DNA of 64,000 nucleotides from the NCBI GenBank assembly GCA_038874355.1, contig JAVZCO010000001.1:231637-295636 (forward strand), given 5' to 3'. Source of the DNA: Candidatus Pacearchaeota archaeon (GTDB taxonomy: Archaea > Nanobdellota > Nanobdellia > Pacearchaeales > GW2011-AR1). This document shows positions 5,802 to 32,652 of this stretch, in pieces. The position numbers were made by a program, and so were the translations under genes. The notes below the pieces were generated by a model that saw nothing but the letters and a program-made list of their open reading frames with translations, did not search any database and was not told the origin of the DNA. How positions within the stretch are numbered: the first letter of the stretch is position 1; each line of letters begins with the position of its first letter.

Positions 5802-6815
5802 ACTTGAATCAAATGAGTTATCGCAATTATTACAAAGAGGTATACTAAAATCATTTTTGAGATGTTTATTTCTTATTATTTTTATTTTCTTTTCAATTTC
5901 TCTATAATTATCTTTAAGTAAATTCCCAAATTTAACTTTTGATTCGTAGTCTCTACAACATATTATAACATTACCCTCAACATCTACAGTAATATTTTTC
6001 CATAAAGCTATACAGGGCCATCTTTTGTTTTTGAAAGAAGGTTTTATGATAATTCTTTTATTTTTCAATTGGCCGGCCCAGTCAGATGCTGTATATGCCA
6101 TTACCGAATCAACTTTATCTTCCCAAAAATCTATAACTTTATTAATTTCTTTTTTATTTTCTTTTAATATCATTAAAGAAATATTTGTTAAAGGATAAAT
6201 CTTTTTTAATTCTTTTTTTCTTTTAAGAAAATTTAAAATATTTTTTTTAGTTCTTTCATATTCTAATCCCATAATTTTCTTATATGTTTTTTCTGTACCG
6301 TTTATACTAAAATTTATTTTGTGTAATCTTAATTTAAGTAATCTTTCAGTCACTTCTGAATTTAAAAGAGAAGCGTTAGTATATATATCAATATCAATGC
6401 TAGGATAATTTTCATTTATCCACTTTACTTTTTTGTCCAATTCTTTATCTATTAACGGTTCTCCGAACCCTGTTAATGTTATTAAATTTATTTTTGAATA
6501 AGGTAAAACATTTTTACAAATTTTTACAAATTGTTCTTGCTTCATAATTTTTTGTTTTCTTTTCATATAAATATGAGGACACATAATACATCTTGCATTA
6601 CAAATATTAGTATTTTCTATCTGGAGAATAGAGGGATTTAATTTTTTTCCCTTATTTTTTATTAACGAATTATAAAATAAATTATAAAAAGAAGAATTAA
6701 CTGTAAAAGAAAGAGGAGTTTTTGCTAGTAAAAATTTGATTAACATCCTCCTTAAGTGACCTTTACCAAGATTTCTATAGTATTTTGCTTCTTTTACAAG
6801 ATAAGATAAATACAT
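5787..6815 (-). CDS. radical SAM enzyme with C-terminal SPASM/twitch Cys-rich domain
   Basis: CNARCIMC = Cx3Cx2C radical-SAM cluster site. C-terminal CIALW...CCRDY...CNNCDNS gives extra Cys ligands typical of SPASM. Confidence 0.7.
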   Translation of the reverse strand: MYLSYLVKEAKYYRNLGKGHLRRMLIKFLLAKTPLSFTVNSSFYNLFYNSLIKNKGKKLNPSILQIENTNICNARCIMCPHIYMKRKQKIMKQEQFVKICKNVLPYSKINLITLTGFGEPLIDKELDKKVKWINENYPSIDIDIYTNASLLNSEVTERLLKLRLHKINFSINGTEKTYKKIMGLEYERTKKNILNFLKRKKELKKIYPLTNISLMILKENKKEINKVIDFWEDKVDSVMAYTASDWAGQLKNKRIIIKPSFKNKRWPCIALWKNITVDVEGNVIICCRDYESKVKFGNLLKDNYREIEKKIKIIRNKHLKNDFSIPLCNNCDNSFDSSLDWW

Positions 6816-6867: not shown

Positions 6868-7983
6868 ATGACAAAAAAGATATTAGAATTATGTGAATTT
6901 TCTTCTGGAATATGTGGAGTATGGACAAGAGTAAAACAAGAATCTTTAGAGCTTGTTAAAAGAGGATATGATGTTTATGTTTTTTCTTCTAATATAGAAA
7001 AAGGAACAAATAAAATAGTTTCTTCTTATGAAGAAGTAGAAGGAATAAAAATATATAGATTTCCTATAAAATTTAGAATAGGAGAAAATGCTTTATTTTG
7101 GGATTTTTTAAAAAAAGGAATAGAGATTTCTCCAGATATAATAATAGCTCACGTATATAGACACCCTCATACAAACCAAGCTTTAAAACTTGCTAAAATA
7201 TTAAAAAAAAGAAAAAATTGTAAAATATTTTTAGTAACTCATGCACCATTCGTTTCTCAAGAAATAAGAGGGCTAAAATTAACATTATTAACAAAAATTT
7301 ATGATTTTTTTTATTCTAAAAACTTGAATAAATTCGATAGAGTAATAACAATAACAAAATGGGAAATTCCACATCTATTAAAATTAGGAACAAAAAAAGA
7401 AAAAATTGTTTATATTCCAAATGGCATACCAAATGAATTTTTTAAAACAAAACCTAATAAATATAAATTTAAGAACATAATTTTTTTAGGAAGAATAGCA
7501 CCTATAAAAAATCTCGAAACTTTATTTAAAGCATTTGAAATTGTTTATAATAAAAATAAAAAAATAAAATTAGAAATAATCGGCCCTATAGAAGAAGGCT
7601 ATAACATTAAAGACAATTTCAAATCAATAAAATTTTTACCTCCAATTTATGATTTAAATCAAAAAATTAAAAAATTAAATTTTTCTGATATTTTTGTATT
7701 GCCAAGCATTAGAGAAGCAATGCCACAAGCATTAATTGAAGCAATGTCTTTGGGAAAAATTGTAATTTCTTCTAAAACAGATGGTGGAAAAGAAATAATT
7801 GAAGATGGAAAAAATGGATTTTTATTTAATATAAGTAATGAAAAAGAACTTTCAGAAAAAATTTTATTTTGTTTAGATAAAAAAAATTCAAAAATAATAG
7901 AAAAAATAAGAAAAAATGCAAGAAAAAAAGCATACGAATTTAATTTAGATAATTTAATTAATAAATTAATAAGTTTATTTTAA
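6868..7983 (+). CDS. glycosyltransferase family 4 (GT-B, group 1)
   Basis: C-terminal EAMPQALIEAMSLGKIVISS (E-x7-E motif) and GFLF motif. Confidence 0.7.
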   Translation: MTKKILELCEFSSGICGVWTRVKQESLELVKRGYDVYVFSSNIEKGTNKIVSSYEEVEGIKIYRFPIKFRIGENALFWDFLKKGIEISPDIIIAHVYRHPHTNQALKLAKILKKRKNCKIFLVTHAPFVSQEIRGLKLTLLTKIYDFFYSKNLNKFDRVITITKWEIPHLLKLGTKKEKIVYIPNGIPNEFFKTKPNKYKFKNIIFLGRIAPIKNLETLFKAFEIVYNKNKKIKLEIIGPIEEGYNIKDNFKSIKFLPPIYDLNQKIKKLNFSDIFVLPSIREAMPQALIEAMSLGKIVISSKTDGGKEIIEDGKNGFLFNISNEKELSEKILFCLDKKNSKIIEKIRKNARKKAYEFNLDNLINKLISLF

Positions 7984-7984
7984 A

Positions 7985-8663
7985 ATGGAAGGATTTGAAG
8001 GAGATGAAGATTGGGAATTAAAAGAACTCCCAAATATAAACACTCTTTTTAAAGGATGGTTTAAAGAAGGAAAAGGAAAACTACTTGAAGCGGGGTTGTG
8101 GCGTAGGAAATTATGTAATTATTTTTTCAAAATATGGTTATAAAGTTACAGGAATTGAAATTTCAAAATCAAGATTAGATATAGCAAGAAAAAATTGTAG
8201 AAAATATAAAGTAAAAGCAAAATTAATTCTCGGAGATATTAAAAAAATGCCTTTTAAAAATGAAAGTTTTGATATTGTTTTTTGCCATGGTGTTGTTGAG
8301 CATTTTCCAGATTCAGAAAAAGGAGTAAGAGAATTATATAGAGTTTTAAAGAAAAATGGGAAAGCAATGATTTCCGTTCCTAATAAGATAACTTTTTTCG
8401 AAATTAACAAATATTTACAAATTTTATTAGGGAAGATACTTCATAAAAAAATATGGAGAGCTGGATATGAAAGAAGTTTTACTAAAAATCAATTTGAAAA
8501 AATTCTTATAAAAGAAGGATTTAAGATTAAAGATTTTTATAAAGTAGAAGTAGGAAAAGGAAGAAAATATCCTTTTGTAGGAATAATATTAAGAATTTTA
8601 GATAAACCTCTTTTATTATTTGATCAAGGAGGGCATTTTATGATTTGGCTTTGTGAAAAATAA
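7985..8663 (+). pseudogene. SAM-dependent methyltransferase disrupted by a +1 frameshift in a G-run (or a sequencing error)
   Basis: ATG at 7985 gives MEGFEGDEDWELKELPNINTLFKGWFKEGKGKLLEAG in frame 2. After the gggg run (~8093-8098) frame 0 continues CGVGNYVIIFSKYGYKVTGIEIS... Removing one G restores a perfect motif I LLEAGCGVGNY. Confidence 0.55.
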
Positions 8664-10848: not shown

Positions 10849-12399
10849 ATGAAAGAAGAAATTAAAGAAGAAAAAGAAGATAAAGCAGAAAATAAGGAAA
10901 AAAAATTAAAAAAAGAAAAAATAAAGGTTTGGTTAAAAGATCCTTATAACCTTGCATTTTTAATAATTCTTTTATTTGCTTTTTCCTTGCGTTTATATTA
11001 TTTCTTTCTAACAAGAAATCAGCCTTTATGGTGGGATGAGGCAGAATATATGTTAAAAGCTAAAAATATAGCATTTAATACTCCAGATACTGGATGGTGG
11101 TATGGAAGACCTATATTATTTCCATTAATTTCTGCCTTTTTTTTTAAATTAGGATTTAATGAAGTTGGAATTAGATTTTTATTTGTTCTAATATCTACTC
11201 TAAATGTTTTTTTTATTTATACCATAGGAAAAATTTTATTTAATAAAAGAGTAGGTTTAATCTCATCATTATTAATATCTTTTTCTTATATAGACTTATT
11301 TTATACTAACAGATTATTAGTCAATCTTCCAGAAATCTTTTTTTCACTTTTTGTTTACTTTCTATTTTTAGAAACAGAATTTTATAACAAATCTAAAAAA
11401 TTAATATATTTTATATTTCCTTTAATTATTATTGGAACATTAATTAGGTTTACAATTGGTCTTATTGTAATAATCTTATTCTTTTATTTCATATTTACTA
11501 ATCATTTTAAATTTTTTAAAATTCGTGAATGGTATATCTCTATCTTTCTTGGGATTCTTTTATTTTTACCATATGCTATTTATTCTTATATTAAATATAA
11601 TAATCCGTTTTATGTAATAATATCTGTATTAATTGGTAGTACTAAAGATAGAGCAATAGGAGATACTCCAATAAAGGTATTTATAGATTATATAAAATAT
11701 CTACCTAATTATACTAACATTTTATTATTCATTTTTTTCTTAATAGGATTTTTTCTTTTGTTATTGGAGATTATTTTAGGATTTGATAAAATAAAAGAAA
11801 GTAAAAAACTTAAAAAATATCTTTGGCTTTTTTTAGCCTTTATTATTCCATTAATTTATTTTGGTTTTTTTGTTAATCATTTTGAAGATAGATATTTAGC
11901 TATTGCTTTACCTTGTATTTTTATCTTAACTTCAAAAGGAATAGAAAATACATATTCTTTTATAAAAAAATATCTAGGAAAATTTTTTTCTATATTAATT
12001 ATTTTAGCAATTTTATTATTTGGAATATACCAAATGTATAATCATTCAAATGAGATAATAAGAATAAAATTAAATTCATATCAAGACTTAAAATTTGCTG
12101 GTTTGTGGATAAAAGAAAACTCCAATCCTGATGATATTATAATTTCTACAGCTATTCCTCAAATAACTTATTATAGTGAAAGAGCAACTTATAACTTTCC
12201 AGAAAATGAAAGCAAATTTTTATCATTTCTAGAAGAGAAAAAACCAAAGTATATGATTTTATCAATTTGGGAAAAATCCCCTCCTTGGGCTTATGTTTGG
12301 CCAGAAAATAATTCTGATAAAGTTAGGATAATACAAGTTTATTTTTTAGATAAAGAAAAAAAACAAGTTTCAACTATAATTTATGAAATTATTTACTAA
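10849..12399 (+). CDS. GT-C fold membrane glycosyltransferase (ArnT/PMT-like, GT39/GT83-type)
   Basis: 516 aa, about 11 TM helices and a soluble C-terminal domain. KE-rich N-terminal tail. Typical dolichyl-phosphate-sugar-dependent GT topology. Confidence 0.5.
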   Translation: MKEEIKEEKEDKAENKEKKLKKEKIKVWLKDPYNLAFLIILLFAFSLRLYYFFLTRNQPLWWDEAEYMLKAKNIAFNTPDTGWWYGRPILFPLISAFFFKLGFNEVGIRFLFVLISTLNVFFIYTIGKILFNKRVGLISSLLISFSYIDLFYTNRLLVNLPEIFFSLFVYFLFLETEFYNKSKKLIYFIFPLIIIGTLIRFTIGLIVIILFFYFIFTNHFKFFKIREWYISIFLGILLFLPYAIYSYIKYNNPFYVIISVLIGSTKDRAIGDTPIKVFIDYIKYLPNYTNILLFIFFLIGFFLLLLEIILGFDKIKESKKLKKYLWLFLAFIIPLIYFGFFVNHFEDRYLAIALPCIFILTSKGIENTYSFIKKYLGKFFSILIILAILLFGIYQMYNHSNEIIRIKLNSYQDLKFAGLWIKENSNPDDIIISTAIPQITYYSERATYNFPENESKFLSFLEEKKPKYMILSIWEKSPPWAYVWPENNSDKVRIIQVYFLDKEKKQVSTIIYEIIY

Positions 12400-13085
12400 A
12401 ATTTTTGGTATGCTTGATAAATTTCAGTAAATGCATTTTCATTAAAAGTAGGTATCTTAAAAATAAATCTTCTTTTAAAAATTTTAATAAATAAGCCATT
12501 GATAGAGAAAGGATCTAAACCACCTTTCAAAATAAGTTTTATATCTTTAATATTATTTTTTGTTTTTTGAAATAATTTATTGTGAGTATAATTTTCTTCA
12601 TAACCATGTTTCCAATTCTTCCCATGAAAAAATCTAAATAATTGCCATAAACTGTATCTGCCGGGTACAAAATTTAATATTATTCCATCTTTTTTAGTTA
12701 CCCTAATCATTTCTTTTATTATTCCTTCTGGTTTATGAAAATGTTCTAATAATCCTGCTGAAAAAACAATATCAAAACTTTCATTTTTAAAAGGTAAGTT
12801 AAATGCATTACCAACAAAAGAATTTTTTAAATCCTTTTTAATTTTATTAATCACAACTTTACTTTTATCTAAACAATATACATCAAATTTTTCTTTTAAT
12901 AAAAGTCTACTATTTGAAGCAAATCCGCATCCCACTTCCAAAATTTTTATTCTTCTTTTATTTTTTTTATTAATTAAATTAATTAACTTCATTAAAACTT
13001 TATGTCTTTCTTCTATTAACCAATTCTCTGCTTCAGAAGGTTTTTCGTATTCTTTCCAAAATTTATTCCATGTTTGTTTCTTCAT
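12396..13085 (-). CDS. class I SAM-dependent methyltransferase
   Basis: ILEVGCGFASNS motif I, DVYCLDKS motif II, FDIVFSAGLLEH. Confidence 0.65.
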   Translation of the reverse strand: MKKQTWNKFWKEYEKPSEAENWLIEERHKVLMKLINLINKKNKRRIKILEVGCGFASNSRLLLKEKFDVYCLDKSKVVINKIKKDLKNSFVGNAFNLPFKNESFDIVFSAGLLEHFHKPEGIIKEMIRVTKKDGIILNFVPGRYSLWQLFRFFHGKNWKHGYEENYTHNKLFQKTKNNIKDIKLILKGGLDPFSINGLFIKIFKRRFIFKIPTFNENAFTEIYQAYQKF

Positions 13086-13086
13086 T

Positions 13087-14160
13087 TTATATTTTTTTCA
13101 TTATTTCTAAAAATTTATTTGCAGATTTTTTCCAAGAAAAATTTTTTGCCCATTTTATTGCATTTTTTTCTAATTTTTTTCTTAATTTTTTATTTTCTAT
13201 TAATAGTTTAATTTTTCCTGCAAGTTCTTTATAATTTCCATATTCAAATAATAAGCCTGTTTTATTATTTATTATGGAATCTTTAATTCCATTAACATTA
13301 CTTCCTATTACTACTGTTCCACAAGCATTTGCTTCTATATTAGTTATACTCCATCCTTCAATCATACTTGGATTTATAACAATCCATGCTTTTTGTAATC
13401 TTTTTATTTTTTCTTCTTCATCTATAAATCCTTTAAAAATAACATTTTTTAATTTTAATTCTCTTGTTATTTTTTTTAATCTTTTTTCATCATCTCCACT
13501 TCCTAATATATATGTAGTTAAATTTTCTTTTTTTAATAAACTTAAAGCTTTTAATAAAATATCAACACTTTTATATTTTTTTAGTCTACCTATAAAAACT
13601 ATTTCGGGATTTTTTGCTTTTTTCCCAGGAATATACTTATTTAGGTTTACCCCGTTGTATATAATTTCAGCTTCTTTTTTGAATAATTTTTTTATTTCTT
13701 CATTGCTACTATAAGATACAGTAATTATTCTTACATTTTTATATACTAATGGCATCAATTTCATTTCTAAAAAATATCCTATTAAAGATAAAGGAAATTT
13801 TTTTTCTTTTTTCCAAACATCTTTATGTATATGGTGAATAATTAATATTTTCTTTTTTTTAGCAAAAAGAGGAGTAAAAAAAGGAATTCCATTTTCAGCA
13901 TCTATTATAATATCAAAATTTTTTCTTATTTTTAAATACATTAATGGTGCAAGAAAATATAAACTAAAAGAATTTCCAATTCTTATAAATTCAATTCCAT
14001 CAATAATTTCTCTTTTTTTACAATTTTTAAAACCTCCACAAATCCAACTAACTTTATGTCCTTTTTTTGTCCATATTTTTGCTTGCTCATTTAAATAAAG
14101 TTCTGCTCCCCCAGCTTGTGGGTTTTTTAAATCCCTCCAATTAAAAATTAAAATTCTCAT
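13087..14160 (-). CDS. glycosyltransferase family 4
   Basis: MRILIFNWRDLKNPQAGGAELY N-terminus. C-terminal E...E (NPSMIEGWSITNIEANACG) motif. Confidence 0.7.
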   Translation of the reverse strand: MRILIFNWRDLKNPQAGGAELYLNEQAKIWTKKGHKVSWICGGFKNCKKREIIDGIEFIRIGNSFSLYFLAPLMYLKIRKNFDIIIDAENGIPFFTPLFAKKKKILIIHHIHKDVWKKEKKFPLSLIGYFLEMKLMPLVYKNVRIITVSYSSNEEIKKLFKKEAEIIYNGVNLNKYIPGKKAKNPEIVFIGRLKKYKSVDILLKALSLLKKENLTTYILGSGDDEKRLKKITRELKLKNVIFKGFIDEEEKIKRLQKAWIVINPSMIEGWSITNIEANACGTVVIGSNVNGIKDSIINNKTGLLFEYGNYKELAGKIKLLIENKKLRKKLEKNAIKWAKNFSWKKSANKFLEIMKKI

Positions 14161-24713: not shown

Positions 24714-25157
24714 TTATAACATTCTTTTTATTAATTCATTTATTTTTTCTTTTCTGTCACCTAAATCTCCTTTAGGATAGTGTTGTTTTATATTTTTTAA
24801 TCCACCTCGAGGAGGATGTAATCTAAAAAATGGTTTTATTGTTTTTATTTTATTATTTTTTATTTCTTCTATAATCTTATTTATTTCCTCTTTTTTTACT
24901 AGTTTATTACCAACTTTTTTACCTCTTTTTTCTATCAATAATTTTAAAGTATCCTCATTTATTTTTCCATAAGTAACATAATTTCTTATTTTTTTTAAAA
25001 TTCCTTCTATTTGTTTATTTTCATTAACAACTACACAAGAAAATTTTTTTCTTAGCCTTAATCTATAAAGAGCTTCTTTTATATCTCTTCTTACATCTAC
25101 TAAGCCCCTTATTCTTATTATAGCTATCATTTTAATTTTTTTAAAGCATTTATGCAT
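24714..25157 (-). CDS. rpl30: 50S ribosomal protein uL30
   Basis: IAIIRIRGLVDVRRDIKEALYRLRLRK. Operon position between uS5 and uL15. Confidence 0.8.
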   Translation of the reverse strand: MHKCFKKIKMIAIIRIRGLVDVRRDIKEALYRLRLRKKFSCVVVNENKQIEGILKKIRNYVTYGKINEDTLKLLIEKRGKKVGNKLVKKEEINKIIEEIKNNKIKTIKPFFRLHPPRGGLKNIKQHYPKGDLGDRKEKINELIKRML

Positions 25158-25876
25158 GCTTTTGCAAAATTTATTGTTGTTCTTGTTTGCCCAAAGCTTC
25201 TACTATAAATATCTTTTATTCCAGCTAATCTTAATATCTTTTTTATTTCATCCCCAGCAACCAAACCTGTACCTTGAGGAGCAGGTATTAAAATAATCTC
25301 TGCACTTCCACATTTACCATTAACCTTAAATGGAATACTATGTGATTCTTTACAATTACAATCAAAACTACCACACCCTCTTTTTATTTTTATTATATTT
25401 AGTTTTGCTTTCCTTATTGCTTTTTCTCTGGCAGGTAAAGTTTCTTTAGCTTTTCCGTAACCAATTCCAACATGTCCATTTTCATCTCCAACAACAGCCA
25501 TACATGCAAAAGTAGGAACATTACCCTCTGCTGTTTTCTTTTGTGTTTGCTTCCAAATTCTTCTTTTTCCACCACCAAATTTTCCTTTTGATTGTCCTAT
25601 TTTTAATAATTCTATTTTAAGATCTAATAAAGAATCTATAATTTCTACTTCTAATATCTTATACTTATCTAAAATTTCATCAATGTCTTTAATTTTTCCT
25701 TCTTTTACTAACTTACCTATTTCTGTTTTAGGTTTCCAATTAACTAATCTTTCTTTTATTTTTTCCTTTTCTTCTATTTCTTCTTTTTCTAATTCTTCAA
25801 TACTACTATCTACTTCCTTTAAAACTTCCTCTATTTCTTCTTCCTTATCATTCATTTTATCTTCCTTCAAATTCAT
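25127..25876 (-). CDS. rps5: 30S ribosomal protein uS5 with acidic N-terminal extension
   Basis: The GRRIWKQTQ...VVGDENGHVGIGYGKAKE core is uS5. A 40-aa E/K-rich N-terminal tail precedes it. Confidence 0.85.
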   Translation of the reverse strand: MNLKEDKMNDKEEEIEEVLKEVDSSIEELEKEEIEEKEKIKERLVNWKPKTEIGKLVKEGKIKDIDEILDKYKILEVEIIDSLLDLKIELLKIGQSKGKFGGGKRRIWKQTQKKTAEGNVPTFACMAVVGDENGHVGIGYGKAKETLPAREKAIRKAKLNIIKIKRGCGSFDCNCKESHSIPFKVNGKCGSAEIILIPAPQGTGLVAGDEIKKILRLAGIKDIYSRSFGQTRTTINFAKACINALKKLK

Positions 25877-28019: not shown

Positions 28020-28250
28020 CTATGAGTATTTTTTAAATCCCAATTCATTAGCAATTTCTCTAAAGCATTGCCTACACAAATCTAACCCGTAAGACGATAT
28101 ATGTGCACCAAATCTTCCACATCTAAAACATTTTTTTGAAGCTATTCCGGTTTTTCTTTCTTTTGGTTTATTATGTCTAATAAATTTTTCTTTTTTTGCA
28201 GGTTTTTTTTCTATTTGTTTTAATATTTTTTTCCAATCACTTGCTGTCAT
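28020..28250 (-). CDS. rps14: 30S ribosomal protein uS14 (type Z, zinc-binding)
   Basis: [25 protein letters not shown] has the CxxC...CxxC motif. N-terminal ~20-aa extension. Confidence 0.8.
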
Positions 28251-28753
28251 TTTATTTTTGTTTTAAAATTTTCCTCCATAAATTTAATTATTTCCTCTTT
28301 AGAGACATTTTGTTTAGCAGGTAATTTTCCTTTTTTTATTTTTCTTATACTAACTCTTTTTCCACTTCTACAAAAACTTACACTAACATCCAATCCTATT
28401 ATTCCTACATCTCTTTGATAAGATATTCCAGGTATTTCTATATACTCTTTTATTCCAAAAGAAAAAGAGTTCTCTGAAATTTGTTTTTTATTTAAAGTAT
28501 TATCTTTTGCAACTAATAATTTTTTTAGTAATTCAATTGCTTCTTTTTTTCTTAGTGTTACAAAAGCTCCAACTTCTAATCCCGGTCTAACATTTAAAGA
28601 AGGTATTCTCTTTTTTGATTTTACTTTTTTTGGTTTTTTTCCTGTAATTCTTTCTAATAATTTTACTCCCCTTTCAAGTTTATCTCCACTACCACCTATA
28701 CTTAAAACAACTTTTTCTATTTCTATATTTCTCATTATATTATTATTTTTCAT
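28247..28753 (-). CDS. rpl5: 50S ribosomal protein uL5
   Basis: [30 protein letters not shown]... uL5 N-terminus. Confidence 0.8.
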
Positions 28754-29394
28754 TTTTCTACCATTATATAATCTAACAAAGCATTTATTTTTTCTTGAGA
28801 AATTTTTATGGTTGCTATATTTTTTTCTTTATCTATTTTTTCTATTATTCCTCTCTTTCCAATATGTTTTCCATTAATTACTAAAACTTTACTCCCTTCT
28901 TTTAATGGTAATATCTCAATTATTTTTTTATTATTTAAATCAAATAAAACAGAATCTCCTATCTTTATGTTTTTATTTTCTTTATAATCTATTAAATAAT
29001 TTCTTCCATTTGTACAATTTATTTGTATTTTATTTTTATCAATCTTTTTCTTATTTAGAATTTTTGCAATAATTTCTTTTTTTTCATTTAAAATTTCTTT
29101 TATTGTTAATTTTTTATTTTCGTTTAAATCCAGAGTATAAATTTTCTTATCTATTTCTATTATATCTTTCAATTGTACTGGAAATTTTTCATCTTTAATT
29201 TTTTTATTATTAACAAAAATTCTTCCCTCTTTTATTATTTTTTTTACATCCTTTCTATTATTAACAATTCTTATTATATCTCTTATAATAACATATACAG
29301 GAATAGAGAGAAAGTTTCCACTAGAAGAAATATATTTAGTACCTTTTCTTGGTAAAGGCCATGTTTTAGGCATTGATTGTCTTTTTCTGTGCAT
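28750..29394 (-). CDS. rps4e: 30S ribosomal protein eS4
   Basis: HRKRQSMPKTWPLPRKGTKYI S4e N-terminal signature. Confidence 0.8.
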   Translation of the reverse strand: MHRKRQSMPKTWPLPRKGTKYISSSGNFLSIPVYVIIRDIIRIVNNRKDVKKIIKEGRIFVNNKKIKDEKFPVQLKDIIEIDKKIYTLDLNENKKLTIKEILNEKKEIIAKILNKKKIDKNKIQINCTNGRNYLIDYKENKNIKIGDSVLFDLNNKKIIEILPLKEGSKVLVINGKHIGKRGIIEKIDKEKNIATIKISQEKINALLDYIMVEK

Positions 29395-29774: not shown

Positions 29775-30176
29775 TTAAACTATTATTAATGCTATTTTAG
29801 CTATTTCTTTCCATCTTTCTGAAATTTCCCTTGGTATAGGACCTTTTATTTGAGTCCCTTTTGGATTTCCCTTTTCATCTTTTAGTAATACAACAGCATT
29901 ATCTGTAAAAGCTATTCTTTCTCCATTTTTTCTTCTTATTGGTTTTTTTTGTCTTATGACAACGGCATCAAATACTTTTCCTTTCATTTCAGGATTACCT
30001 TCCCTTACACTAACCTTTACCCAATCTCCAATTCCGCAACGAGCTTGCCTACCTTTTCTAGATTTTTTTTTCTTTACCCCAATAATCTTAACTATTCTTG
30101 CGCCAGAATTATCAGCAGCTATAACATAACTTCCTATATTTAATGCATTAGGTATTTTTGAAGATATTGCTTTCAT
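29775..30176 (-). CDS. rpl14: 50S ribosomal protein uL14
   Basis: ADNSGARIVKIIGV... FDAVVIRQKKPIRRKNG. Confidence 0.85.
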   Translation of the reverse strand: MKAISSKIPNALNIGSYVIAADNSGARIVKIIGVKKKKSRKGRQARCGIGDWVKVSVREGNPEMKGKVFDAVVIRQKKPIRRKNGERIAFTDNAVVLLKDEKGNPKGTQIKGPIPREISERWKEIAKIALIIV

Positions 30177-30559
30177 TTTTTATTTCCTTCTTTTATTATA
30201 TCTAATAAAACAAAATGAATAATTTTACTTAAAGGCCTACACTCTTGTATTAATACATAATCCCCTATTTTTACTTTTTCTTCCATACATTTAGGTAATC
30301 TAGCATGCAATCTTGTTTTCTTTTTTAAATATCTTTCATACTTTTTTATATAAACTGTTCTCTCAAATTCTATAACAATTCTTCTCGGAAATTTTTTTAT
30401 AACATACCCCTCAAATTTTCTTCCTCTAACTTTTAGATATCCATGGATAGGACAATCTTTATCATTACATTTTTCTTTATTCTTGCTATCAATTTTCTTT
30501 TTTTCTATATTTTCATCTATCTTTTCTTTCTCTTCTTCTTTTATTTCTTTATTTTCCAT
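30173..30559 (-). CDS. rps17: 30S ribosomal protein uS17 with 29-aa KE-rich N-terminal extension
   Basis: C-terminal RKFEGYVIK...GDYVLIQECRPLSK is uS17. N-terminal MENKEIKEEEKEKIDENIEKKKIDSKNKE is identical to the uL22 N-terminus. Confidence 0.75.
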   Translation of the reverse strand: MENKEIKEEEKEKIDENIEKKKIDSKNKEKCNDKDCPIHGYLKVRGRKFEGYVIKKFPRRIVIEFERTVYIKKYERYLKKKTRLHARLPKCMEEKVKIGDYVLIQECRPLSKIIHFVLLDIIKEGNKK

Positions 30560-30574
30560 TTTATTATTATTTTA
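30471..30574. repeat. 104-nt perfect direct repeat, copy A (uS17 5' end plus 17 nt upstream)
   Basis: Identical to 32158-32261 base for base by manual alignment. Confidence 0.8.
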
Positions 30575-30863
30575 TATTACCCTCCTTAAATCCAAGATTT
30601 ATTAATATTTCTTTAATTTTTTTACTATGATCCCCTTGTAATTCTATAATATTATTTTTTATTGTTCCTCCACATGCAAGTTTTTTCTTTAATTCTTTTA
30701 ATATCTCTTTTATATTCACACTTTTATCAAATCCGCTAACTACTGTTATTATTTTTCCAAATTTTCTTTTTTCTGTTATTACTTTAATTTCTTGATTTTC
30801 TCTGCTTATTTCACTGCATATACATATATTTTTTGGTAATCCGCACTTTGGACAGATATCCAT
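30567..30863 (-). CDS. sui1: translation initiation factor SUI1 (aSUI1/eIF1)
   Basis: GKIITVVSGFD...LACGGTIKNNIIELQGDH matches the SUI1 family. Canonical archaeal position between L29 and S17. Confidence 0.8.
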   Translation of the reverse strand: MDICPKCGLPKNICICSEISRENQEIKVITEKRKFGKIITVVSGFDKSVNIKEILKELKKKLACGGTIKNNIIELQGDHSKKIKEILINLGFKEGNIK

Positions 30864-31036
30864 TATTTAATACTAAGCAATCTCGCGATCGCTCTTTTTA
30901 TTTCTTTTATTTTTATTTTATTTTGTTTATTAGCAGGATTTTTTCTTTTTATTAATTCTAATCTTAATTCTTTTAATTTTTCTTCTCTTTCTTTTTTATT
31001 CATATTTTTTATTTCTTTTTTATTCAAAACAGCCAT
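30863..31036 (-). CDS. rpl29: 50S ribosomal protein uL29 (57 aa, not in the ORF track)
   Basis: Manual translation gives MAVLNKKEIKNMNKKEREEKLKELRLELIKRKNPANKQNKIKIKEIKRAIARLLSIK. Stop overlaps the SUI1 start. Expected operon position after uS3. Confidence 0.6.
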   Translation of the reverse strand: MAVLNKKEIKNMNKKEREEKLKELRLELIKRKNPANKQNKIKIKEIKRAIARLLSIK

Positions 31037-31037
31037 T

Positions 31038-31712
31038 TTATTTTTTACTCTTCTTATTTTTCTCTTCTTTTTCTTTTATGTTTATTCTATTTATATTTTC
31101 TTCTATTTTTCTCTTTATTTCTTCATTTATCAATATTTGATCATGTATTTTTTCATTTGGAGGTAATATACTAACCTTTATTCCTATAGTTCCTGCTATA
31201 GTTTGTGCAGTTGCTTTTGCTTTTTTTACTACCTTAACAGTATCTCCAGTTTTTTTTAAATATCCAAAAGCAAATCTCCAAGATTTTGCCCTTGCACTAG
31301 GCAATTTTCCACTTAATCTTATTTCAGCTCCTAATGCTCCAGCTTTTTGTATTTTTTCTAAAGTTTTATATGCTATTAATTTAAATTTTGAACTTCCTAA
31401 TCTCTCTAAAGAAAGGGCAATTTCATCAGCTATTGTTACAGCATCAAATTCCGGTTTTTGTATCTCTCTAATTTCTATTATAGGATTTTCTAATTTGAAT
31501 ATTTTTTTTAGATTATTTGTTAATTCATTAATTTTCTCTCCTTTTTTTCCTATAATAAATCCAGGCTTTGTTGTAGAGATTATTATTTTTTCTCCTATAG
31601 GAGTATATTCTACACTGATAGAACTAAATCTTCCCTTTCCTAAAGACTTTTTTATATACTCTTTTATTCCATATTCATCTTTTTTTAAAGTTATAAATTT
31701 TTTTTCTTCCAT
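31038..31712 (-). CDS. rps3: 30S ribosomal protein uS3 (KH domain)
   Basis: KH motif IIGKKGEKINELT and a conserved uS3 C-terminal domain. Confidence 0.85.
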   Translation of the reverse strand: MEEKKFITLKKDEYGIKEYIKKSLGKGRFSSISVEYTPIGEKIIISTTKPGFIIGKKGEKINELTNNLKKIFKLENPIIEIREIQKPEFDAVTIADEIALSLERLGSSKFKLIAYKTLEKIQKAGALGAEIRLSGKLPSARAKSWRFAFGYLKKTGDTVKVVKKAKATAQTIAGTIGIKVSILPPNEKIHDQILINEEIKRKIEENINRINIKEKEEKNKKSKK

Positions 31713-31715
31713 TTT

Positions 31716-32246
31716 TTATTCTAATTCTAATTTACCTTTTGCTTTAATTAAAATATGAGTTCTCTTAAACCTTCTTGTTCCAAATCTTCTATAAGGTCTT
31801 GAAGCTTTATCTGCTTTTGCAAAAAAGATAAATGGTTCTTCTATGTTATGATAAACAGCATTTGCATTTAAATTTTTTAATAATTTTATAAAAGTTTTTG
31901 TAGCTTTTATTGGATATCTGCCACTTTTCATATTCTTTCTATGTGGAATTTCTCCTTTCATTGGTACAGCTTTTTTAAATTTTAAAACCAATTCTAAATC
32001 CTTTAATGCTTTTTTTATTTCTTTTCCTTTAATAAATTTACATAATGCTACCGAATGTTTTGTTGATATTGATAAATCTCTTCCTCTAACAATTACTTCT
32101 TTAATTTTTTTTTCTTCTTTCTTTGTGTCATTGTTATGTGATTCTTTGTTTTCTAAATTTTCTTTATTCTTGCTATCAATTTTCTTTTTTTCTATATTTT
32201 CATCTATCTTTTCTTTCTCTTCTTCTTTTATTTCTTTATTTTCCAT
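31716..32246 (-). CDS. rpl22: 50S ribosomal protein uL22 with ~50-aa KE-rich N-terminal extension
   Basis: VRGRDLSISTKHSVALCKFIKG is the uL22 core. The first 29 aa are identical to the uS17 N-terminus. Confidence 0.75.
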   Translation of the reverse strand: MENKEIKEEEKEKIDENIEKKKIDSKNKENLENKESHNNDTKKEEKKIKEVIVRGRDLSISTKHSVALCKFIKGKEIKKALKDLELVLKFKKAVPMKGEIPHRKNMKSGRYPIKATKTFIKLLKNLNANAVYHNIEEPFIFFAKADKASRPYRRFGTRRFKRTHILIKAKGKLELE

Positions 32247-32261
32247 TTTATTATTATTTTA
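32158..32261. repeat. 104-nt perfect direct repeat, copy B (uL22 5' end plus 17 nt upstream, including the S19 stop codons)
   Basis: Identical to 30471-30574. Confidence 0.8.
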
Positions 32262-32652
32262 CTGACATAAAAGCAGAGCTTCTTGTAGCTCCGATACCAG
32301 GTGCCCCATGTTTAACACCTTTTCTTGTTACGGAAAATTCTCCTAATCTATGTCCTAACATATCTTCTGTTATTTTTACAGCGACAAATTCTTTTCCATT
32401 ATGAACATATATTGTTAATCCAACCATTTGTGGTACTATTATCATATCTCTATAAAGAGTTCTTATAGGTTTTCCCTTTTCATTATATTTTTTCCACCTT
32501 TTTATTATTTTTTCAATTTCTGAAAAATTTCTTAATATAGTTCTCCTTTCCCTAGATGTTATATATTTTGCAAATTCACGAATATCCATTTCTTTCAATT
32601 CTTCTAAAGTTTTTCCTCTTAATGTAAATTTTTTCTTTTCTATTTCTATCAT
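32254..32652 (-). CDS. rps19: 30S ribosomal protein uS19
   Basis: [27 protein letters not shown], a highly conserved S19 core. Confidence 0.85.

Follow-up and report, generated by a model that had tools for sequence, protein, structure and literature searches.

A probable copy of the uL22 start region onto uS17 within the ribosomal protein operon of a Candidatus Pacearchaeota archaeon

Ectopic gene conversion in prokaryotes is well known to homogenise duplicated tuf genes or rRNA operons. Here we describe a 104-nucleotide (nt) direct repeat in the ribosomal protein (r-protein) operon of a Candidatus Pacearchaeota archaeon, through which two unrelated genes, rps17 and rpl22, have the same start region and their products, uS17 and uL22, the same N-terminal tail. 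The repeat lies in a stretch of 64,000 nt, called the window throughout, on a 575,629-bp contig of a metagenome-assembled genome (MAG) that represents a single assembly of a population; positions without a locus name refer to the window, and copy counts cover its 64 kb. The locus resembles ectopic gene conversion in that two perfectly identical, sharply bounded tracts are set in unrelated flanks, donor and recipient are near each other in the same orientation, and the copy appears one-way, the donor retaining the ancestral state of its orthologues and the recipient being derived. It differs from RecA/RadA-type conversion between paralogues in that the genes are non-homologous, which places it closer to microhomology-mediated template switching or templated insertion, and in that the protein N-terminus and the translation start region are altered as well. 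A second comparison is with the lineage-specific low-complexity extensions of universal r-proteins, such as the N- and C-terminal tails that solved ribosomes show to be specific to eukaryotes or archaea. As with these, a charged segment is placed on a conserved core; it is predicted to be detached from the fold, and it varies in length and sequence between relatives. In our case, however, the tail is nucleotide-identical on proteins of both ribosomal subunits, and its origin from another r-protein gene can be traced. A third is with the translational coupling of closely spaced r-protein genes through termination and reinitiation, which the locus resembles in having a stop followed after 7 nt by an ATG with no canonical Shine-Dalgarno (SD) sequence, but here two such junctions would be identical by copying rather than by convergence. 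A limited search of the literature, which is weak evidence, found no account of r-proteins with a tail in common, nor any of gene conversion within r-protein operons of DPANN archaea. We consider it likely that a recent, one-way ectopic gene conversion or template switch carried the 5' end of rpl22 onto rps17 and produced a chimeric uS17. Such an event would be a variant of what is already known about ectopic conversion or template switching and about how r-protein tails evolve, and is not a new molecular system.

The two copies of the repeat, copy A at 30471-30574 and copy B at 32158-32261, both on the minus strand, agree at 104 of 104 nt, just as the original prediction had it when it called them identical base for base. 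They are co-oriented, and their starts are 1687 nt apart. Both edges are abrupt: the adjoining bases differ, so that the exact match extends no further on either side, and similarity between the flanks is about what chance gives in A+T-rich DNA. Stretching the pair to 133 nt lowers the identity to 90%, the added flank being near background for DNA of 23% G+C. No 20-mer of the repeat recurs anywhere else on either strand of the window, and a blastn-short search of the window returned only the two copies together with short low-complexity A-rich matches. After this pair, the window has no exact direct repeat longer than 24 nt, and the longest exact repeat in 90 simulated windows (Markov orders 1, 3 and 5) was 25 nt. 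Even if the codon choice is restricted to the 10 codon types that the tail uses, a run of 28 identical codons would be expected by chance with a probability of about 6e-23. The composition of the 104-mer is 71 A, 17 G, 15 T and 1 C. The deposited proteins MEM3405650.1 (uS17, 128 aa) and MEM3405654.1 (uL22, 176 aa) are 100% identical to the open reading frames (ORFs) of the window, so the repeat is present in the public record, and the NCBI annotation uses the same start codons for both proteins as we do. The 104-nt repeat is real in the deposited sequence and beyond low-complexity coincidence. A stretch at the S4e|L5 junction (28711-28754), which matches the 5' part of the repeat at 82% over 44 nt, was considered as a third copy and rejected; it is probably a generic start context instead, because most junctions of the operon share an A-rich ...ATAAA-ATG-(A/G)AA-AAT... 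sequence.

Read in gene orientation, the repeat consists of TAAAA, a TAA stop, the 7-nt spacer TAATAAA, the ATG, 28 further codons and 2 nt of codon 30. Copy B reaches from the end of rps19 (uS19, 32254-32652, minus strand, PF00203) through codon 29 plus 2 nt of rpl22 (31716-32246, minus strand), and copy A from the end of the SUI1 gene (aSUI1/aIF1 family, 30567-30863, minus strand, PF01253) to the same point of rps17 (30173-30559, minus strand). Each copy contains the last 5 coding nt and the stop of the upstream gene, the TAAAA being 2 nt of the penultimate codon and the final Lys codon of uS19 or SUI1. The stop, the 7-nt spacer, the ATG and the 28 codons had been described before in the same way; the upstream part, previously given as three TAA triplets of the upstream gene, needs correction to TAAAA and a single TAA stop, the two further in-frame TAAs belonging to the spacer. 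Like most junctions of this operon, both have 7 nt between the stop and the next ATG and no SD sequence at the canonical distance. The peptide common to uS17 and uL22 is MENKEIKEEEKEKIDENIEKKKIDSKNKE, 29 aa. Beyond it uS17 passes straight into its core at K30-C31 (K-CNDKDCPIHG...), and uL22 continues with 21 more K/E/N-rich residues (NLENKESHNNDTKKEEKKIKE, codons 30-50, 32097-32159, minus strand), which are single-copy and outside the duplication, before its core begins (...EVIVRGRDLSISTKHS). The K/E-rich extension of uL22 is thus about 50 aa in total, and the repeat encodes its first 29 aa. Both cores are intact: uS17 matches PF00366 at residues 56-119 (E 1.2e-17) and retains the invariant C31, D33, C36 and H39 of the CxDxxCPxHG motif, and uL22 matches PF00237 at residues 54-166 (E 6.8e-08, above the gathering score). 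Internal alternative starts were ruled out for both proteins, the next in-frame ATG, GTG or TTG being codon 84 in uS17 and codon 86 in uL22, well within the cores. With no alternative start before the core, uS17 and uL22 both depend on the ATG of the repeat.

Comparison with the operons of related Pacearchaeota and Nanoarchaeota (loci L001-L006 and L014-L024), which all have the same gene order, indicates which copy is the original. In every relative examined uL22 has a long K/E-rich N-terminal extension, of 40-60 aa in related Pacearchaeota, and the segment that precedes the L-x-I-S-x-K-H motif is 57 aa in the window against a median of 62 among the 120 best homologues. The closest uL22 orthologues begin MVEENKKIEEKEE, MEEENKEVIE, MAEENKQEKIEE and MEEETKEIIEE, all resembling MENKEIKEEEKE of the window, and the pattern M-x-EENK-x-IEEK at their start is tail-like. 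The closest uS17 orthologues, which are 72-78% identical to the uS17 of the window, have leads of 7-13 aa ending in ...EKIEC (for example MKNKNNEKIEC, MKNKAKQEEKIEC and MKEEKIEC), and this EKIEC motif is lost in the window. With 30 aa before its Cys motif, the uS17 of the window has a long lead: the median of 117 homologues is 18 aa, and seven of them have leads of at least 30 aa. When the tail was scored against N-termini with composition-preserving shuffles, the best matches were to uL22 (P0143, z 6.0; P0122, z 4.1), and no uS17 N-terminus exceeded z 3. At the DNA level, the whole 104-mer is collinear with the S19|L22 junction and the 5' end of L22 in L014 (z 3.9, 0 of 300 shuffles) and in L015 (z 4.1, 1 of 300), and it gives no alignment with the S17 5' ends of the same two loci (z 0.5 and 1.9). 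In global alignments with its orthologues, the homology of rps17 starts exactly at the repeat edge, at AATGTAATGAT; that of rpl22 runs through the junction and across the 104-mer. Similarly, K/E-rich sequence continues past the repeat edge in rpl22 only, whereas in rps17 the conserved core follows immediately. These comparisons show that the segment is native to rpl22 and derived in rps17; the uL22 extension is lineage-wide and only uS17 acquired a tail, so the direction of copying is from rpl22 to rps17. The original prediction had treated the tail as appended to both proteins and had suggested a comparison of orthologues; that comparison, with an extension throughout uL22 and leads of only 7-13 aa in the closest uS17 proteins, bears it out for uS17 but not for uL22, where the extension is native.

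In the event that we propose, about 100 nt of the 5' end of rpl22 would have been copied to the start of rps17, which lies 1.7 kb further downstream in the same operon and on the same strand. The donor, copy B in its native context, would have supplied the stop, spacer and start of the S19|L22 junction (TAA-TAATAAA-ATG) together with codons 1-29 of the K/E-rich extension. In the recipient, now copy A, the native SUI1|S17 junction and a short lead of about 7-13 codons would have been replaced, with the tract ending 1-2 codons ahead of the conserved CxDxxCPxHG motif. Some 16-24 extra codons would have been inserted in this way, either by a microhomology-guided switch or by short-tract conversion between co-oriented sites. 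At the 5' edge the candidate microhomology is TAAAA(T), with which both upstream genes natively end, possibly together with the similar starts ATG-RAA-AAT-AAA-G, and at the 3' edge it is (AATAAA)GAAAA. The product would be an intact chimeric uS17 that is translated from the uL22 initiation region and carries the first 29 residues of uL22. That a 5' module was converted or duplicated very recently had been suggested from the first, and the identity of the tract, its sharp edges and the states of the orthologues all fit that suggestion. So do the shared gene starts and leaders of related operons and a 34-nt exact patch in two methyltransferase paralogues of the window, both described below, which look like the same process at other places.

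Several details of the relatives are relevant to these edges. The C-termini of the upstream proteins are unaltered, uS19 ending in ...FMSVK in the window and identically in L014 and L015, and SUI1 in ...GNIK compared with ...ENIK and ...ENIR in orthologues; because these ends are unchanged, both loci must have had TAAAA before the event. The SUI1 gene and rps17 overlap in L015 and L016, L015 reading ...ATA AAA TGA with the ATG of S17 inside, and the S17 start of L015, ATG AAA AAT AAA G, is identical at 12 of 13 positions to ATG GAA AAT AAA G of rpl22. The 10-mer AATAAAGAAA stands at both ends of the tail as an internal direct repeat, its 5' copy at 30544-30553 and its 3' copy, a candidate microhomology for the 3' junction, at 30472-30481 (minus strand), 72 nt or 24 codons apart, and one S17 homologue, P0056, begins MENKEKCND, as if the two ends of the tail were joined. 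The microhomologies, that is TAAAA(T), ATG-AAA-AAT-AAA-G/ATG-GAA-AAT-AAA-G and AATAAAGAAA, are reconstructions from relatives. The identity of the copies, their anatomy, the need of both genes for the shared ATG, the ancestral states in orthologues and the direction of copying are shown by the sequences. The recombination mechanism, the use of microhomology, the recency of the event and its neutrality are what we infer from this picture.

An SD-like sequence, AAGGAGGG, is found in the 3' end of the SUI1 gene (30575-30600), with GGAGG 21 nt upstream of the ATG of rps17. The equivalent SD-like GGAG of L015 is about 10 nt upstream of its S17 ATG. The copied junction would thus have shifted a possible ribosome-binding site out of range, and rps17 now has the SD-less stop-7 nt-start junction of rpl22.

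Several points weigh against a copying event of this kind. Classical conversion needs homology, and the donor and recipient genes are unrelated; what they would have shared are A-rich microhomologies of 5-16 nt, which we infer from relatives of 72-78% identity. The nearest relatives are distant, and an intermediate with a long S17 lead is possible, given the seven homologues with such leads. Finally, the MAG is known from a single assembly, neither a 27-mer of the repeat nor a 24-mer of the S17 core has an exact match in the metagenome contigs of the Joint Genome Institute (JGI), and the next-closest uS17 among 5.8 billion proteins is 78% identical, so the chimeric form is known from that one assembly.

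The alternative that survives best is a shared functional 5' module, which selection or concerted evolution would hold identical in the two genes. We regard it as unlikely, and it would add to a conversion event rather than replace it. In such a module the identical junctions and unstructured A-rich first codons would make initiation equal for r-proteins required at the same level, or the K/E helix would have a common role on both subunits. One point in its favour is that the sharing of leaders and first codons recurs in related operons, which we scanned for exact repeats and compared with the simulated maxima of 17-23 nt per locus. In L015, the closest syntenic relative (JGI 3300037067 Ga0378408_0007953), 7256-7343 and 13876-13963 agree over 76 nt exactly and over 88 nt with one mismatch. 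This repeat comprises a leader of about 62 nt and the first 9-11 codons of rpl22 and rps5, and both proteins start with MEEETKEIIEE. In the same operon the leaders of uL24 and uL18 have at least 23 nt in common (9796 and 13311). The starts of uS17 and uL24 share 29 nt in L014 (9678 and 10465), and in L016 uL22 and uS5, both beginning MEEENK, have 22 nt in common across the ATG, a borderline case. Also borderline are the leaders of uL24 and uS5 in L024, whose 23 common nt (12588 and 16705) equal the simulated maximum. The spacers upstream of uL30 and uL15 in L024 (17440-17555 and 17975-18130) share 28 nt exactly and a second match of 21 nt, and they seem, as judged by eye, to be similar over most of about 110 nt if a shift of about 6 nt is allowed. 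In L004, a Nanoarchaeota MAG, the entire 97-nt L22|S3 spacer (5908-6004) recurs with one mismatch at the L19e|L18 junction (12300-12396), up to ATGG. From sequence comparison, therefore, it appears that r-protein genes of this lineage have repeatedly exchanged or homogenised their 5' modules.

Two other observations favour a functional module: the RNA of the 104-mer is wholly unstructured (minimum free energy 0 kcal/mol, z 0.25), and an unstructured start region favours translation initiation; and the uL22 extension is kept across the lineage. Nevertheless, the partner genes vary from genome to genome, which argues against one fixed functional pairing, and the closest relatives lack a uS17/uL22 module. 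The identity over 87 coding nt, synonymous sites included, also exceeds what selection on initiation would demand, and all junctions of the operon have the generic A-rich ...ATAAA-ATG context without being identical. That the exchange of 5' modules is not only recurrent but concerted and selectively useful, whether for equal 1:1 initiation or for a common tail on both subunits, is improbable in our judgement. The original prediction had seen in the extended r-proteins of the window a sign that tails may still be being acquired in this lineage. Relatives, with their identical stretches of 22-97 nt, agree with such a process, but the extensions that it cited for uS5 and uS14 are lineage-wide rather than recent: the E-rich N-terminus by which uS5 (25127-25876) is extended, about 45 aa long, occurs in variable form in all relatives, and uS14 (28020-28250) is 76 aa in the window and at every related locus where it is called.

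Some of the shared spacers of relatives have features of their own. That of L004 includes a hairpin, GGATCACC-N5-GGTGATC, and GGAGG 11 nt ahead of the ATG, which gives it the look of a leader or regulatory module repeated within the r-protein operon. Many of the shared spacers of L014, L015 and L024 have a common layout, in which a small A/T-rich hairpin is followed by TTTAAATTT, about 20 nt and the ATG; two such hairpins in L024 are unlike in sequence with the pairing kept in both. These spacers may be internal terminator-promoter or leader modules.

Less probable still is an artefact of assembly, gap filling or polishing, by which the segment of rpl22 would have been misplaced onto an rps17 gene that in reality has an ordinary short 5' end. 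Apart from the single assembly and the absence of exact matches in other contigs mentioned above, such an error would explain the identity of exactly 100%, as expected of a copy-and-paste mistake, and low-complexity A-rich sequence, with 71 of 104 positions being A, is difficult to assemble and polish. On the other hand, the order S19-L22-S3-L29-SUI1-S17-L14 is canonical and the same as in at least 10 related operons, which is not what a mis-resolved repeat would give. The insert is in frame, provides the sole start codon of rps17, and stops 1-2 codons before the core, leaving both ORFs intact. A mis-join in the assembly graph needs shared k-mers at both edges, and the flanks share only about 5 nt, at the 5' edge; common read lengths and the largest k values exceed 104 nt, and assemblers normally resolve repeats of this size and do not invent them. 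Moreover, analogous repeats occur in relatives that were assembled independently by other studies. The earlier suspicion of an assembly artefact can therefore be kept only as an outside chance, given the gene order, the maintained frame and the need of both genes for the ATG of the repeat.

We give very little credence to the reverse direction, in which tail and junction would be native to rps17 and copied onto rpl22. The N-termini of both proteins are K/E-rich in the lineage, a few S17 homologues (the seven noted above) have leads of at least 30 aa, and the MENKEKC start of P0056 shares both ends of the tail, all of which would suit such a copy. The comparison with relatives points the other way in each respect, however: the 104-mer aligns with orthologous L22 5' regions and not with those of S17, the M-x-EENK-x-IEEK start is common to the closest uL22 orthologues, the closest uS17 proteins have short leads with the EKIEC ending that is lost here, and only in rpl22 does the K/E-rich run go on past the repeat. 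The idea that the two junctions happen to hold a transposon, a miniature mobile element or a cis-regulatory RNA leader can be dismissed almost entirely, for although there are two identical copies in equivalent positions before two genes and small hairpins in the repeated intergenic spacers of some relatives, the repeat has no terminal inverted repeats, no target-site duplication and only two copies in 64 kb, and 87 of its 104 nt are coding and required by both genes. A mobile element was ruled out on the lack of any such hallmark (inverted termini, target-site duplication or dispersed copies) within the window, and a regulatory RNA or leader on the unstructured segment and the absence of any Rfam match at the gathering threshold in the 64-kb window, whether tRNA, rRNA or another known RNA family. 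The 'mobile' 5' module of the first description thus holds in the sense of recombinational copying but not in that of a mobile element, since it lacks terminal inverted repeats and RNA structure and the window contains no third copy.

As a protein segment, the tail contains 9 E and 9 K among its 29 residues (62% K+E) and has a net charge of -2. AlphaFold2 models built with homologue alignments predict it in both proteins as a single isolated helix, at residues 3-26 in uS17 and 5-32 in uL22, with a pLDDT (predicted local distance difference test) of 50-66 and a low-confidence linker. The cores are predicted with a pLDDT above 90 in uS17 and of 97-98 in uL22, and both match archaeal proteins in the PDB (uS17, E 6.5e-26; uL22, E 1.2e-12). 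The tail is absent from solved archaeal uS17 and uL22, where residue 13 of Pyrococcus uS17 corresponds to residue 28 of the uS17 of the window and residue ~20 of archaeal uL22 to about residue 54 of its uL22. The models suggest that the tail is probably a flexible, solvent-exposed, helical appendage, and that it is most likely tolerated by uS17 rather than needed. In its K/E content, near-neutral charge and isolated predicted helix it is similar to an ER/K single alpha-helix (SAH), but it is short and its helix is predicted at a pLDDT of 50-66, and what defines an SAH is a stable isolated helix with i to i+4 E/K salt bridges.

The operon of the window is canonical for archaea and lies entirely on the minus strand, in the order L3-L4-L23-L2-S19-L22-S3-L29-SUI1-S17-L14-L24-S4e-L5-S14-S8-L6-L32e-L19e-L18-S5-L30-L15-SecY. 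Between and beside the genes with the repeat are uS3 (31038-31712), uL29 (30863-31036) and uL14 (29775-30176), all identified with Pfam. In related Pacearchaeota, non-ribosomal genes are found within the r-protein clusters, namely an RNase_T-type exonuclease between L4 and L23, an HD-domain gene between S19 and L22, a NUDIX gene between S17 and L14 and a MazG gene between L30 and L15 (L021, 8072-8653; L023, 7455-8084, 9412-9999 and 12180-12557; L019, 17788-18117). The operon of the window is without those exonuclease, HD, NUDIX and MazG genes. Elsewhere in the window, two methyltransferase-like ORFs, at 8085-8663 (plus strand) and 12396-13085 (minus strand), are head-on, otherwise diverged paralogues that contain an exact inverted repeat of 34 nt (8250-8283, plus strand, and 12761-12794, minus strand), at which both encode PFKNESFDIVF. 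This patch is longer than the simulated chance maximum of 25 nt. It may be another short conversion tract, and would fit a genome in which conversion of short tracts is active.

Repeats that are exact over about 100 nt and lie inside an r-protein operon can mislead assembly and binning, and in phylogenies and start-site annotation of uS17, uL22 and uS5 in these lineages the N-termini are best masked. If real, the event described here is an unusually clean case of a universal r-protein gaining an N-terminal extension in one step, by the copying of a neighbouring r-protein start from 1.7 kb away and not by slow low-complexity expansion or horizontal transfer. The sequences themselves reveal its donor and recipient, its edges and the ancestral states. 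The similar sharing in other DPANN operons suggests that the purine-rich DNA of K/E tails makes such exchanges frequent, and frequent exchange would help account for the patchy, fast-evolving r-protein extensions of reduced archaeal genomes.

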